Shown here: positions 2,391 through 9,956 of the stretch, piece by piece
Layout of the letters: each line of letters starts with the position of its first letter
Position numbering within the stretch: position 1 is the stretch's first letter
IMG/VR virus record: IMGVR_UViG_3300028048_000004
Location: 6,958-70,957 of that record
Strand: one strand, 5' to 3'
Source: a virus
Taxonomy: Duplodnaviria; Caudoviricetes
Length of the DNA stretch: 64,000 nucleotides
Program-made: the position numbers and the translations under genes
Notes under the pieces: generated by a model
Database searches by the model: none
What the model saw: the letters and a program-made list of their open reading frames with translations, nothing else
What the model was told of the DNA's origin: nothing

Positions 2391-2408
2391 ATCCTCCTTA
2401 CAGTTATT

Positions 2409-2437
2409 AATATACTACATATTTAAAAATGTGTCAA
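2409..2437 (-). promoter_or_regulatory. Sigma70-type promoter
   Basis: TTGACA-17-TATATT upstream of AAGGAGG RBS. Confidence 0.7.
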
Positions 2438-2440
2438 CTA

Positions 2441-2647
2441 TTAATTTTCTCTTCTTTTCTTTTTTGCGTATGGTATCATTCGCTTCATGACCTCATACCT
2501 ATAACTACTTGCTATTGCATCATCAGACTTGGCTTTAATAATAGTAGCACGTTCCTCATCCAACTGCTTTTTCCAATTCTTATACTGCTCACAATTTGAA
2601 TGACAACTCTCATATCGTTCTGTACAATCTTTACACGGTGCTATCAA
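2441..2647 (-). CDS. Small Cys-rich hypothetical protein
   Basis: PCKDCTERYESCHSNCEQY, a metal-binding-like pattern. Confidence 0.6.
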   Translation of the reverse strand: MIAPCKDCTERYESCHSNCEQYKNWKKQLDEERATIIKAKSDDAIASSYRYEVMKRMIPYAKKKRREN

Positions 2648-3003
2648 AACAATCTCCTTTTCTTTCCCACATCTTTCTTCTTAGTTTCCGCTTCAGCATT
2701 ATGTCTTGTCAAAATTTTTGTTGCAATATCCACCACCCAGTCTAATGTAACCGGCAACTGCATTCCAGTGCTTGCATCCCAATCAATAAAATACTCTGCG
2801 AGCGTCACTTGTTCTGCTATCTGTGGATATGAAGTTTGTAGATGTTGCAATTCTTTTGCCCACACATTCCATTTCTGATCTGAAATAACAGAAGCGTTTA
2901 AATGATAATAAATGCAGGAGTGAATTAAAAGCTGATAGCGTCTCTGCTGTATCTTTTCCGCTATCTGTAATTCATCTCCTGTAAAAATTTCATATACTTT
3001 CAT
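2644..3003 (-). CDS. Stand-alone protein resembling the N-terminal Ia subdomain of NAD-dependent DNA ligase
   Basis: RRYQLLIHSCIYYHLNASVISDQKWNVWAKELQHLQ resembles the LigA Ia YY...ISD..YD..L..LE pattern; start taken at MKVYE (3003). Confidence 0.55.
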   Translation of the reverse strand: MKVYEIFTGDELQIAEKIQQRRYQLLIHSCIYYHLNASVISDQKWNVWAKELQHLQTSYPQIAEQVTLAEYFIDWDASTGMQLPVTLDWVVDIATKILTRHNAEAETKKKDVGKKRRLF

Positions 3004-3143
3004 CGTGACTCCCACTCTGAACACGTGTCCTTACTTTCAACTTCTAAACTGTTATTTTCTGAATATTCGTTGGTACAGTATCTTTCACCTTCTATAAACT
3101 GACACCAATAACAATTTGCACAGCAGTTATTTTGATTGCTCAT
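3000..3143 (-). CDS. 47-aa Cys-rich hypothetical protein (not in ORF track)
   Basis: AGGAGG RBS; MSNQNNCCANCYWCQFIEGERYCTNEYSENNSLEVESKDTCSEWESR; ATGA overlap with the next gene. Confidence 0.6.
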   Translation of the reverse strand: MSNQNNCCANCYWCQFIEGERYCTNEYSENNSLEVESKDTCSEWESR

Positions 3144-3167
3144 TACTACCTCCTATATTTTAATAAA

Positions 3168-3200
3168 CTGCCCCAGATGGACTCGAACCATCAAATGCAG
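3168..3200 (-). pseudogene. Orphan 3' half of a tRNA-Gln gene
   Basis: CTG CATTT GATGG TTCGAGT CCATC TGGGGCA G: T-arm plus acceptor strand pairing 7/7 with the 5' half at 3926-3932. Confidence 0.8.
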
Positions 3201-3219
3201 AACATATTCACAATTTTAA

Positions 3220-3291
3220 CAGCGGCAGTAGGAATCGAACCTACATTGTCAGGGTCAAAGCCTGCTGTACTAACCTTTATACTATACCGCT
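3220..3291 (-). tRNA. tRNA-Gln(UUG), intact, no encoded CCA
   Basis: Acceptor AGCGGTA/TGCCGCT; anticodon arm GCAGG-CTTTGAC-CCTGA; T-arm GTAGG-TTCGATT-CCTAC. Confidence 0.85.
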
Positions 3292-3297
3292 ATAAAA

Positions 3298-3747
3298 TTA
3301 CTTTCTGTTTCCAAATTTATCAATGAACTGGTTACCATTAAAACCTCGTAACTTTGCACTAGCACTACACTTTTGACAAAAATCTTTCGACATTTTTCTT
3401 CCCTTATTTACTGGTCCATGTTCCTTAACGTAATTTGCTAATCGCATATTACCTTTACTATGCAAACTTGAATGTTCACATCTTGATAATATCTGTAAAT
3501 TATTCAGTGCATTATTATGTGTATTTTCATCTATATGATGTACAATACAACCACGTGTGTAATCCTGCAAATACTTCATAGCAACAACTGTATGAACACC
3601 AAAAATATGTCTTTTATGATTAGTGTCAAATAATAATACTTGTAAATATTTATTAGACTTAAATGGTTTAATTTCTACTCCATTTTTATACACTCTACCA
3701 AGTTCATCAACATCATAATTTGGAAACATTTCTTGAAAGTTATACAT
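3298..3747 (-). CDS. Free-standing HNH homing endonuclease
   Basis: VHTVVAMKYL...VHHIDENTHNNALNNLQILSRCEHSSLH (HNH_3 type) with basic C-terminal tail. Confidence 0.85.
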   Translation of the reverse strand: MYNFQEMFPNYDVDELGRVYKNGVEIKPFKSNKYLQVLLFDTNHKRHIFGVHTVVAMKYLQDYTRGCIVHHIDENTHNNALNNLQILSRCEHSSLHSKGNMRLANYVKEHGPVNKGRKMSKDFCQKCSASAKLRGFNGNQFIDKFGNRK

Positions 3748-3868
3748 AATACCACTCCTTAAAATATAAAAACGCTATTGGAGTGCATGGTGCGAGCATA
3801 CACTTTTAGACCAATAGCGTTCTTAGCATAATTTAGTGGTGTAAAGTCTCGCACTCTTTACGAGTGAT
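3748..3868 (-). ncRNA. Structured kissing-loop leader RNA, copy 1
   Basis: Hairpin GTAAAG-aGTGCGAGa-CTTTAC; long hairpin CGCTATTGG..GTGTATG-CTCGCAC-CATGCAC..CCAATAGCG followed by T-tract and RBS; the two loops are exactly complementary. Confidence 0.7.
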
Positions 3869-3897
3869 ATTATAACATAACTTTATTAAATTGTAAA
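3869..3897 (-). promoter_or_regulatory. Sigma70-type promoter of the HNH cassette
   Basis: TTTACA-17-TATAAT. Confidence 0.8.
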
Positions 3898-3898
3898 T

Positions 3899-3932
3899 AA
3901 GTGCTGTGCCTTAACCATTTGGCGATGGGGCA
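3899..3932 (-). pseudogene. Orphan 5' half of a tRNA-Gln gene
   Basis: TGCCCCA TC GCC AAATGGT TAAGGC A CAGCA CTT, breaking in the anticodon loop; U1 start typical of tRNA-Gln. Confidence 0.8.
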
Positions 3933-3934
3933 AA

Positions 3935-4570
3935 AATTGTGGCAGAACCATATTCTTTCAAGCACGTTCACTTATTGGCTACTTTGCAATTCCAAACTAA
4001 CTTACTTACTGGAATATCCAATTAGTATATTTTCTACCTAATCCAACGGAGCGACCAACTCTTTGTATATAGTAGGAAACGGTAACAGTTTCAATCCAGT
4101 CTTTGATTAGGTGGGGGTATTCAAGCGTTCAATCTCCTTTTTCATTGCATACTCCAAACTTTCAGCCACCACAAACGGGAGCAGAAGGATTCGAACCTTC
4201 GTTTTCTGATTGATGGTTACCAGACTGTTGCCTTAGACATACTCTAACAAGCACATCACTCTTGTACCCTTTGTCTACACTTACACTCCCATATTGACCG
4301 CCCCTGTCTCGCAAACTCAGGCGGTCATTTCTGACTAAATAATCAGAAAAACTGGCGGCGGTCTTGGCCTTCGACCGCACTTTAATGCTCATTAACAAAC
4401 CAGTCTAAACTGCATGATATATCTACCATGACTAACTTCCAATCAGGTTTTCGTATACTCATATTGGAGTCTTTGCATACTAAGGTCTGCCTTTTCGTTA
4501 ATAACTCATCTGAAATTATTAACTACGCATATCTGCACTATGATAATAGAGGTATTACCAGACCACTCCT
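3935..4570 (-). ncRNA. Candidate large structured ncRNA within the tRNA island
   Basis: Many nested helices and no credible CDS; see findings. Confidence 0.55.
4176..4290 (-). ncRNA. 115-nt tRNA-like domain with an expanded D-arm region
   Basis: Acceptor GGGAGTG/TGCTCCC; canonical T-arm GAAGG-TTCGAAT-CCTTC; no 7-nt anticodon loop. Confidence 0.55.
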
Positions 4571-4572
4571 TA

Positions 4573-4680
4573 TTATGCGGGTAAGGATTTGCACCTTACA
4601 TGAACTGCATTTTCCAAGGCTCTGTCGACTCGACCTATCAGTTCTTATGCTTAAGCGTCTACCTATTCCGCCACCGCATA
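4573..4680 (-). ncRNA. tRNA-Leu-like RNA with non-canonical anticodon arm, copy 1
   Basis: Acceptor TATGCGG/CCGCATA + A73; D-arm GCGGAATAGGTAGACGC; T-arm TAAGG-TGCAAAT-CCTTA. Confidence 0.65.
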
Positions 4681-4737
4681 ACGTAGTCTTTCCCACTGTC
4701 AGACAAAGTCCTCCATTCTTGCACAACGAATGGGGAA

Positions 4738-4811
4738 TCGGGAATACTGGACTTGAACCAGTGACACATGGCTTATAAGGCCACCGCTCTAACCAACTGA
4801 GCTAATTCCCG
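4738..4811 (-). tRNA. tRNA-Ile(UAU)
   Basis: Acceptor CGGGAAT/ATTCCCG; D-arm GCTC/GAGC; anticodon arm GTGGC-CTTATAA-GCCAT; T-arm ACTGG-TTCAAGT-CCAGT. Confidence 0.9.
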
Positions 4812-4909
4812 TGAGTGCGTCTCAGGGGATAGAGGAGGACGCACTGTTGCGGTTCATATCTGCACCCCACAGTAACAGATTGTGCGTTGCTACCACAACA
4901 AAACGCTAA

Positions 4910-4993
4910 TGCGGGTAGTGGGAGTTGAACCCACACGATATTACTATCAGAGGATTTTAAGTCCCCTACGTCTGCCTATTCCGTCATACCCGC
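4910..4993 (-). tRNA. tRNA-Leu(UAA)
   Basis: Acceptor GCGGGTA/TACCCGC + A73; anticodon arm GGGGA-CTTAAAA-TCCTC; long variable arm; T-loop TTCAACT. Confidence 0.9.
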
Positions 4994-5002
4994 CGAACTT
5001 AC

Positions 5003-5167
5003 TTAAAGAATATCGAAAATATAATCATCTTCTAATCCTAAATAATCTTGAATTGCTTCATCGTTTCCGTCCATCAACGACTCTAAGCACTGATCAATTA
5101 AATCATTGGCTTCTTCTTTTGTCATACCATCCCGCTTCACAAGAATATTGACAACATCTTTTCTCAT
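5003..5167 (-). CDS. Small acidic hypothetical protein
   Basis: Start at MRKDVV after GGAGG RBS; ATGA overlap with the upstream gene. Confidence 0.6.
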   Translation of the reverse strand: MRKDVVNILVKRDGMTKEEANDLIDQCLESLMDGNDEAIQDYLGLEDDYIFDIL

Positions 5168-5709
5168 GCTACTTCCTCCTTCTCTGTAATAGCGGACCTG
5201 ATGATCCAACCTTCCCAAACTACATCAACAAGTTTCTGTTTAATTCCGTCTACATCGTTAATATCTAAATCCATAATGAACGGAACTTTTGTAATGCATT
5301 CCGGGCCAATGCCATATTTCTGAGAAATAGGATTTGTCAATGTTCTTCCACACCGCATACACCGAATAACTGGCTCTGCTTGTCCATGTAACTTCATGTA
5401 TACCATTCCACGGGTTTCTTTTTCAATAGTACCAACCATTGTTCTCAATGGCATTGGATTGTTATTATTGAACTTCGACATGAAGTCAAATCCGGGACTA
5501 GCATATTCTGTCATATACTTCTTGACTGTAACACGATACTGTGTCTTGTCGTTTAACGTGTCTACCACGCTCTTAATTGCGTTTTTAGTGTTTGACTGTA
5601 AAATAATACAATCGTTATCTGAAAGTGTCTTAAAATCGAAATTAGACGCTTCTACAGCAGTGTCGTTTATGAGTATTTCACCTTTCCAGTCTTTTAAGAG
5701 ATCTAACAT
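5164..5709 (-). CDS. Hypothetical protein with zinc-ribbon motif (DUF6011-like)
   Basis: CMRCGRTLTNPISQKYGIGPEC. Confidence 0.6.
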   Translation of the reverse strand: MLDLLKDWKGEILINDTAVEASNFDFKTLSDNDCIILQSNTKNAIKSVVDTLNDKTQYRVTVKKYMTEYASPGFDFMSKFNNNNPMPLRTMVGTIEKETRGMVYMKLHGQAEPVIRCMRCGRTLTNPISQKYGIGPECITKVPFIMDLDINDVDGIKQKLVDVVWEGWIIRSAITEKEEVA

Positions 5710-9807: not shown

Positions 9808-9927
9808 AATAACCTCCTAAAATATAAAAACGCTTGTGGAGTGTATGGGTCGAGCATACACTTTTAGACCACAAGCGATTTTAACACTTTTAGAATTTGT
9901 TGTAAGTCTCGACCTCTTACAGAGGTT
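9808..9927 (-). ncRNA. Structured kissing-loop leader RNA, copy 2
   Basis: GTAAG-aGGTCGAGa-CTTAC and CGCTTGTGG..GTGTATG-CTCGACC-CATACAC..CCACAAGCG-TTTTT; homologous to 3748-3868 with compensatory changes. Confidence 0.7.
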
Positions 9928-9956
9928 ATTATACTATATTATTTAAAATGTGTAAA
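9928..9956 (-). promoter_or_regulatory. Sigma70-type promoter of the NUMOD4-HNH cassette
   Basis: TTTACA-17-TATAAT, overlapping the recU 3' end. Confidence 0.8.

Follow-up and report, generated by a model that had tools for sequence, protein, structure and literature searches.

Introduction

SegB of phages T4 and T6 is a free-standing GIY-YIG homing endonuclease encoded in a tRNA gene cluster; it cuts within tRNA genes in phages without SegB, and repair then passes it on along with adjacent tRNA genes (PMC2330249; PMC13096335), and processing of the tRNA-cluster transcript has been suggested to limit the expression of SegB and of T5 enzymes (PMC2330249). Here we analyse 64,000 bp of viral DNA (the window; bases 6958-70957 of the 70,957-bp IMG/VR virus record IMGVR_UViG_3300028048_000004), in which an HNH nuclease gene and a complete tRNA-Gln(UUG) lie together inside a second tRNA-Gln gene. 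We call the inserted unit the cassette, the complete tRNA its cargo and the interrupted gene the resident tRNA-Gln. The cassette resembles SegB in being a phage nuclease gene among tRNA genes, and the tight spacing between its open reading frame (ORF) and its cargo recalls the suggested limit by processing. SegB, however, is a GIY-YIG enzyme with intact tRNA genes on either side of its own and with the conserved T-loop of many tRNAs as its recognition site, whereas the cassette nuclease is of the HNH type; and SegB neither occupies and destroys one tRNA gene nor is paired with a replacement of the same tRNA, as the cassette does and is.

Intronless homing by free-standing endonucleases has also been described for SegF and SegG of T4 (as cited in PMC13096335 and PMC2330249), and the F-Tfl HNH endonucleases belong to the tRNA region of T5 (Akulenko 2004, via PMC2330249). 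Both systems share with the cassette a spread without intron or intein, the co-conversion of adjacent markers and a linked allele presumed to be resistant, but their genes lie between genes, whereas the cassette lies inside its presumed target and leaves both target halves in place. Fractured genes are conserved genes that a free-standing endonuclease gene interrupts and a split intein makes whole (PMC2677866); the likeness lies in a nuclease gene amid a conserved gene and in two separately encoded halves, but there the halves are rejoined by protein trans-splicing, whereas here they are halves of an RNA gene without its anticodon loop, show no sign of being rejoined, and have their function supplied by the cargo copy. 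The closest relative of solved structure by sequence is I-HmuI of phage SPO1 (PDB 1U3E), a nicking HNH homing enzyme of a phage. The gene that hosts I-HmuI encodes a protein and is mended at the RNA level, since the enzyme sits in a self-splicing group I intron, whereas the cassette has no intron and a second gene supplies the lost function. In the limited collection of full-text literature that was searched, no account came to light of a nuclease gene that sits within a tRNA gene and is joined by a replacement tRNA.

In the window, a mobile unit of an I-HmuI-like HNH gene and a tRNA-Gln(UUG) occupies the place of the anticodon loop of the resident tRNA-Gln, and the same pair recurs in many phage backbones. 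The unit is probably an intron-free homing-endonuclease element that is aimed at tRNA-Gln genes and works by 'cut and replace'.

Results

A cassette in place of an anticodon loop

The viral record has 127-bp terminal repeats and is rated complete, and near-identical DNA occurs in contigs from many bovine and goat gut metagenomes; the source of the cassette is a cattle-gut phage. Every feature of the split tRNA-Gln locus is on the minus strand. The 5' fragment of the resident gene (3902-3932, tRNA positions 1-31, located by sequence and by a regular-expression scan) runs from T1 at 3932 through the acceptor strand TGCCCCA, the dinucleotide TC, a GCC/GGC D arm and A26 to the anticodon-stem strand CAGCA (3906-3902). 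The 3' fragment (3168-3202, positions 39-73, located by sequence) resumes with TTCTG (3202-3198) and continues through the variable loop CATTT, the T arm GATGG/CCATC and the acceptor strand TGGGGCA (3175-3169) to G73 at 3168. The two acceptor strands pair at 7/7 positions and the two anticodon-stem strands at 4/5 at best. Between them, a 699-bp cassette (3901-3203) stands where the seven-base anticodon loop (positions 32-38) should be. An earlier reading made from the letters of the window (the sequence-only reading) had proposed a tRNA-Gln split within its anticodon loop; both the split and its location are borne out, by the acceptor pairing and by a related phage, L003, that has the same tRNA unbroken. 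Its start for the 3' piece, 3200, has to be moved to 3202, the 5' piece ends at 3902, and its insertion point after position 34 gives way to replacement of the whole loop, as comparison with a sister cassette, L032, sets the edges at tRNA positions 31/32 and 38/39.

The cassette opens with CTT, just as the resident loop does, and the apparent 'CTT ... TGAA' of the window is a matter of chance, because L032 has TAAA at that place. Positions 32-38 are found in neither flank of the cassette, and no joining of the halves gives a CUUUGAN loop. Because the cassette occupies the place of the anticodon loop and splits the gene, no decoding tRNA can be made from the resident copy. A split tRNA joined in trans, of the Nanoarchaeum type, was rejected, as the loop positions are missing from the halves. 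When ARAGORN was run on the halves joined at all nearby points, it returned many 'tRNAs' with arbitrary anticodons and hence has little discriminating value here. Among the contigs of four sequencing runs aligned to 2400-5100, none joins across the cassette, and many joints come from unrelated tRNAs at 85% likeness; cassette-bearing contigs were present in 3/4 of these runs, one of the four being labelled metatranscriptomic, though probably DNA. These contigs speak neither for nor against expression of the locus or ligation of its halves.

Were the insert a self-splicing tRNA intron, of group I or another kind, that holds the ORF and a tRNA in its peripheral loops, splicing would restore the outer tRNA-Gln. 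Group I introns do occur in the anticodon loop of bacterial tRNA genes (PMC2330249), and the end of the 5' exon, GCACTT, could pair with GAGTGC of the cassette's leader in the manner of a P1 helix. GAGTGC, however, is part of a hairpin in a leader that also precedes HNH genes outside any tRNA, Rfam returns no intron family at E <= 10 over 2500-5500, the loop nucleotides are missing from the exons, and the 3' exon is absent in half of the loci. Homologous cassettes of other phages, moreover, can have just 6-16 nt from position 31 to the ATG, and those of L033, L034, L008, L018 and L037 are without non-coding room for a ribozyme core (P3-P9). We therefore hold an intron of this kind to be very improbable, as had been anticipated from the lack of group I hallmarks in the insert, and a group I intron in the anticodon loop was rejected: there is no core match, and the exons do not rebuild the anticodon stem-loop. 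An integrase-type island at a tRNA gene was likewise rejected, since the HNH gene is the only ORF of at least 60 amino acids on the gene strand of the insert and the resident gene is not restored.

The unbroken gene in related phages

When the initial 26 nt of the 5' piece were searched for as an exact match, a single further viral contig came up, L003 (= L005), in which the identical 26 nt open an unbroken tRNA-Gln(UUG) with the anticodon arm CTGGT-CTTTGAA-GCCAG. Positions 44-73 of this tRNA match the 3' piece of the window at 28/30. The locus is syntenic, with an odd 113-nt tRNA-like RNA upstream and a small Cys-rich ORF and an Nlig-Ia-domain gene downstream, and it has neither an HNH gene nor a second (AGCGGTA-type) tRNA-Gln. 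Two further relatives reached through the Nlig-Ia gene, L004 and L006, carry a single tRNA-Gln at the same place. The sequence-only reading had set down beforehand that insertion would predict a related phage with an intact TGCCCCA-type tRNA-Gln at this locus, and that an HNH-less relative with both the split halves and the full tRNA would speak against it; L003 is such a phage, and none of the relatives examined has the latter combination.

Recurrence of the pair across phages

We compared 12 distinct HNH contexts (the window, L032, L012, L013 = L010, L033, L034, L008, L018/L020, L037, L035/L036, L038/L039 and L015-L017), whose nucleases have 48-87% amino-acid identity to that of the window. 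A tRNA-Gln(UUG) lies 3' of the HNH gene in 12/12 contexts and starts between -16 and +11 nt from the stop codon, that is, with an overlap of up to 16 nt or a gap of up to 11 nt. The cargo tRNAs belong to a single sequence type, whose D stem has four pairs and is of the GTAT...GTAC kind, unlike the resident fragments and the intact resident genes, which have a GCC...GGC D arm. In 9/12 contexts and also in a truncated contig, L011, a resident-type tRNA-Gln is represented by a 5' fragment whose last position is 31; this fragment borders the ribosome-binding site or start region of the HNH gene directly in L008, L011, L018, L033, L034 and L037, the promoter in the window, L032 and L013, and a 24-nt leader remnant in L012. 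As for the remaining contexts, the fragment is cut in the D loop in 2/12 and is lacking in one (L015-L017). A 3' fragment is found in 6/12 contexts, begins at position 39 in 5/6 of these loci and at the T arm in L034, and in 6/6 pairs 7/7 with the acceptor strand of its own 5' fragment, even though acceptor sequences vary from one locus to another. Across the HNH family, the 3' fragment is the one more often missing. Set against the traits of Seg- and Mob-type nucleases, the cassette has expression signals of its own and is transferred with a linked marker (cargo in 12/12), but it does not lie between genes.

The same arrangement surrounds tRNA-Leu(UAA) in L022 (1300-2180) and L023 (1200-2170), where the HNH proteins are 42-43% identical to that of the window and the layout comprises a 5' fragment, a complete tRNA-Leu(UAA) and a 3' fragment of another tRNA-Leu; the outer acceptor strands of L022, GCCGCTG/CAGCGGC, pair 7/7. 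This same layout in a related HNH clade speaks against a view in which the HNH gene is a mere passenger beside a tRNA gene, the fragments are recombination debris of tandem or exchanged tRNA-Gln genes and tRNA-Gln is no target at all. That free-standing nuclease genes sit in phage tRNA clusters and take neighbouring tRNAs along, as SegB does (PMC2330249; PMC13096335), is in keeping with such a view, as is the HNH-tRNA pair of L015-L017, which stands behind a tRNA-Tyr without any Gln fragment. A fixed break point, however, is not expected from random debris, and 10 loci (9/12 contexts and L011) are all broken at tRNA position 31, even though their HNHs share no more than 48-87% identity with that of the window; the 3' fragment starts at position 39 in 5/6 loci. 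We consider a passenger nuclease distinctly improbable.

At L018:3045-5150 and L020:795-2972, the clamp-loader gene that directly follows the HNH-tRNA-Gln cassette has Hom_end/LAGLIDADG matches, which suggests that it holds an intein; two kinds of homing element would then adjoin.

Mobility and co-inheritance

The limits of the cassette are also those of its similarity to L032. The upstream flanks cannot be aligned, and the tRNA 5' halves match at 24/30; identity then rises from 80% to 98.7% across 3902/3901 and stays high through the leader (152/154), the HNH gene (88.7%), the cargo tRNA (71/74) and the end spacer (14/16), before it drops past 3203 to 25/35 in the tRNA 3' halves and 65% in the downstream flanks. 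In L012, which has a different tRNA array and unrelated flanks, the parts in common with the window are the last 24 nt of the leader, the HNH gene (83%) and the cargo (77/79). Synonymous divergence (dS) between the window and L032 is 0.17-0.69 in the HNH gene (0.17 over its first third, about 0.67 beyond) and 1.1 and 1.2 in two flanking genes, each value of the latter resting on about 50 codons. By these comparisons, the cassette is less diverged, and in this sense younger, than its flanks.

The identity of the HNH proteins rises with that of their cargo tRNAs (Spearman 0.71 over 66 pairs), and within the same 36 pairs that have a 5' fragment, the HNH-cargo value is 0.83 and the HNH-5' fragment value 0.52; these figures are descriptive only, because the pairs are not independent. 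HNH gene and cargo tRNA are inherited together across the 12 contexts.

An I-HmuI-like HNH nuclease

All the components that the sequence-only reading had listed, namely a promoter, a structured leader, an HNH gene and, 6 nt past its stop, a complete tRNA-Gln(UUG), were found between the halves. The HNH gene (3298-3747, 149 amino acids) was identified as a homing-endonuclease gene of the I-HmuI kind by its match to PF13392 (HNH_3), whose score of 26.1 bits (28.8 bits in a search of the genome) exceeds the curated cut-off of 24.8. Built from 61 homologues, a profile of the family matches one solved structure, that of I-HmuI (1U3E, E 2.8e-12), in an alignment that takes in the N-terminal sheet and the HNH motif, and H70, H71, N83, H92 and H96 of the beta-beta-alpha-metal motif are invariant in these homologues. 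With a ratio of nonsynonymous to synonymous divergence (dN/dS) of 0.13-0.20, the gene is under purifying selection, and the nuclease would seem to be live. The gene has its own promoter, leader and ribosome-binding site, and no intron surrounds it.

Homologous HNH proteins form 104 clusters at 48-99% identity, almost all from metagenome assemblies; one homologue carries a second Pfam domain, PF07460, which we take to be the NUMOD3 DNA-binding motif. A scan of IMG/VR with the HNH alignment added only L022-L024, which are distant members, and the same scan of species genomes gave only weak HNH-motif matches, in metagenome-assembled genomes. Among GenBank phage records, blastn with 2600-5200 returned short tRNA matches only and tblastn with the HNH protein nothing at E <= 1e-8, and no cultured relative of the HNH subfamily was found there. 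Two further HNH_3 genes are present in the genome (7815-8369 and 9262-9807, minus strand); neither adjoins a tRNA, and the second has the shared leader described below.

A cargo tRNA-Gln at the stop codon

The cargo tRNA-Gln(UUG) (3220-3291; Rfam tRNA 62.6 bits, E 1.6e-12; 3219-3292 by ARAGORN) begins 6 nt past the HNH stop and has the acceptor AGCGGTA/TGCCGCU and the D arm GTAT-AAAGGTTA-GTAC. It is the only tRNA-Gln of the 70,957-bp genome, because a whole-genome scan yields three tRNAs only, Gln(UUG), Ile(UAU) and Leu(UAA); of the 510 Gln codons, 44% are CAA. The idea that the element replaces the resident tRNA by a divergent one holds in that the cargo is the sole tRNA-Gln left. Since its anticodon is the same as that of the resident, a point that the sequence-only reading had missed, the cargo is a divergent copy of the same tRNA species, with the loop CTTTGAC against CTTTGAA in the resident. 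With the cargo tRNAs of L032 and L012 it shares 96-97% identity, and its first 25 nt were found nowhere in an exact search of IMG/VR beyond the window's own genome. As the gap between stop codon and cargo is only 6 nt, with overlap in other contexts, maturation of the cargo's 5' end would cut the nuclease message at or inside the end of the ORF.

Among related cargo tRNAs (window, L032, L012, L013, L033, L034 and L015), the D and T arms are near invariant, while the anticodon stems change with compensation (GCAGG/CCTGA, TTTGG/CCAGA, TCAGA/TCTGA, GTAGC/GCTAA, CATGG/CCATG); the resident fragments show the same pattern of steady D and T arms and compensated anticodon-stem changes. These changes could reflect escape from nuclease recognition, or ordinary drift of a stem.

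A shared promoter and structured leader

A sigma-70-type promoter (3869-3897; TTTACA-17-TATAAT, with TG upstream of the -10 box) matches at 11/12 positions and is the best site in the region. It is followed by a structured leader of 119 nt (3748-3866; minimum free energy -40.8 kcal/mol, z -5.5 relative to shuffles), for which folding predicts a small hairpin (3864-3848), a long hairpin followed by a T-run (3829-3764), with two compensatory pairs in its support, and a pairing of 3840-3835 with 3756-3751 that overlaps the ribosome-binding region. Promoter and leader form a module: a 77% identical copy stands 5' of the second, unrelated HNH gene at 9807-9262, the shared sequence spanning 3748-3875 and 9808-9935 on the minus strand, and the leader paralogue (9926-9808, minus strand) likewise folds with z -4.9. 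Nearly identical leader copies precede HNH genes in L003 (12320-12455), L040, L041 and L042, none of them inside a tRNA. Without an Rfam match, this conserved leader of rumen-phage HNH genes is a candidate cis-regulatory RNA for nuclease genes. Since L012 and L013 are without its hairpins, these were probably gained by recombination in the lineage of the window.

The cassette ends

The ends of the cassette, CTTATTTACAATTT on the left (3888-3901, which includes the -35 box) and AAATTGTGAATATG on the right (3203-3216), are imperfect inverted repeats (3901-3888 with 3216-3203) and lengthen the anticodon stem to ~19 bp. The energy of this terminal duplex is -15.3 kcal/mol in the window, against -6.4 +/- 2.4 for shuffles, and the corresponding values are -16.3 in L032 and -16.6 in L033, with no more than 0.2% of shuffles as good. 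The helix of L032 is the same as that of the window, and that of L033 is built from unrelated sequence as a perfect 14 bp that stops 2 nt 5' of the ATG. No terminal helix was found at the cassette ends of L012 or L008; in L008, a 9-bp pairing with sequence 3' of the cargo covers the start codon.

This helix raises the question of an RNA role for the locus, in which pairing of the outer halves and of the cassette ends would give read-through transcripts the shape of a tRNA with a long 'anticodon' arm, a handle kept by selection as a control element: an entry site for RNase P/Z or RNase III, a means of occluding the HNH start region, or a half-site for self-repression by the nuclease. Such a role can coexist with homing, in which case homing endonucleases would have domesticated a broken target for control. 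It would agree with the lengthening of the anticodon stem in the window, L032 and L033, in the last by a different sequence; with the position of the L033 helix and of the L008 pairing at the start codon; with the 7/7 acceptor pairing at all six two-fragment loci and the compensatory changes between window and L032 at tRNA positions 7-66, 29-41, 49-65 and 50-64; and with a 5' fragment of near-invariant D arm beside the HNH start in 9/12 contexts. Yet neither the 3' fragment nor the helix can be essential, because the former is absent in 6/12 contexts and the latter in L012 and L008; the promoter of the window's cassette, moreover, starts transcription downstream of the left helix arm, and intact-looking halves would also be expected after recent homing into a working gene. 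On balance, we regard a selected handle of this sort as unlikely.

Other tRNA-like elements near the locus

The odd tRNA-like RNA upstream of the split gene (4176-4290, minus strand) has counterparts at L003:6970-7085 and in L004, there also upstream of tRNA-Gln. Within its 113 nt, an acceptor-like stem of 9 bp is accompanied by a D-like arm, a T arm that contains GGTTCGAATCC and two additional hairpins, with compensatory changes in one arm among the window, L003 and L004; the Rfam tRNA match is weak (16.6 bits), and ARAGORN reports the RNA solely in the mode that permits an intron. A block of ~240 nt (3933-4175) separates this RNA from the tRNA-Gln 5' fragment and is absent from L003 and from one metagenome contig, in which 3933 is joined to 4174 with one letter between.

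A second tRNA-like element (4574-4680, minus strand) is also present in L004 and L032. Its acceptor strands pair 7/7 (TATGCGG/CCGCATA, with the compensatory TATGTGG/CCACATA in L004), and it has a type-II-like D arm and a T arm, while ~55 nt of other sequence replaces the anticodon and variable arms; the version in L004 has a longer insert that starts with AAGGAG. The element may be the relic of an older cassette insertion from which the nuclease has been lost.

Discussion

We propose, as the probable explanation of the locus, that the cassette homes into tRNA-Gln genes without an intron. During mixed infection, the HNH enzyme would nick or cut an unbroken resident-type tRNA-Gln near its anticodon arm, and the cassette would be copied out of the donor genome during repair. 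Short portable homology arms may be provided by the conserved tRNA halves or, on the right side, by the cargo tRNA; as the cargo's own 3' part can serve in this way, such a role would account for both the regular 5' fragment and the dispensable 3' fragment. The cargo would itself be a poor substrate, putatively escaping the cut because its D arm and stems differ from those of the target, and insertion would cost little because tRNA function comes along with the nuclease. The level of the nuclease may be held low by the structured leader and by tRNA processing at the stop codon of the ORF.

Several points weigh against this proposal. Target, cut position and cargo resistance are all features that we infer by comparing sequences. 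The loops of cargo and resident are nearly the same, so any discrimination between them must lie in the stems or the D arm. Enzymes of the I-HmuI type reportedly also cut their own intron-containing DNA, a finding attributed to Goodrich-Blair and Shub in 1996, and resistance of the cargo may thus not be needed. No cassette-free allele of the same phage species was seen, and the phage with the intact allele is ~70% identical in a neighbouring protein; the dS of the flanks, as said, draws on few codons. Finally, the halves are well preserved, with 7/7 acceptor pairing at 6/6 loci and compensatory differences between window and L032, and such good halves fit recent homing into different alleles and, equally, selection on an RNA role.

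To our knowledge, homing endonuclease genes are thought to persist in essential genes only by way of a self-splicing intron or intein, or else beside their target. The cassette would represent a third route, one for RNA genes, in which the element occupies and destroys its target and brings along a working, divergent copy. Engineered 'cleave-and-rescue' and 'home-and-rescue' drives follow a similar logic, in that a nuclease disrupts a needed gene and is linked to a recoded copy that it does not cut; these synthetic drives use engineered Cas9 in animals, whereas the cassette is a natural, protein-guided phage element whose rescue logic we infer. If the proposed cutting is real, the cassette would stand beside engineered 'home-and-rescue' gene drives as their natural equivalent. 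It would then also account for the half-genes and duplicated-looking tRNAs of phage tRNA clusters, and would provide a mechanism for sweeps of tRNA alleles between unrelated phages in which a tRNA gene serves as a portable homology arm. The family, finally, offers a set of probably sequence-specific nicking enzymes whose targets could be read from the flanking fragments.

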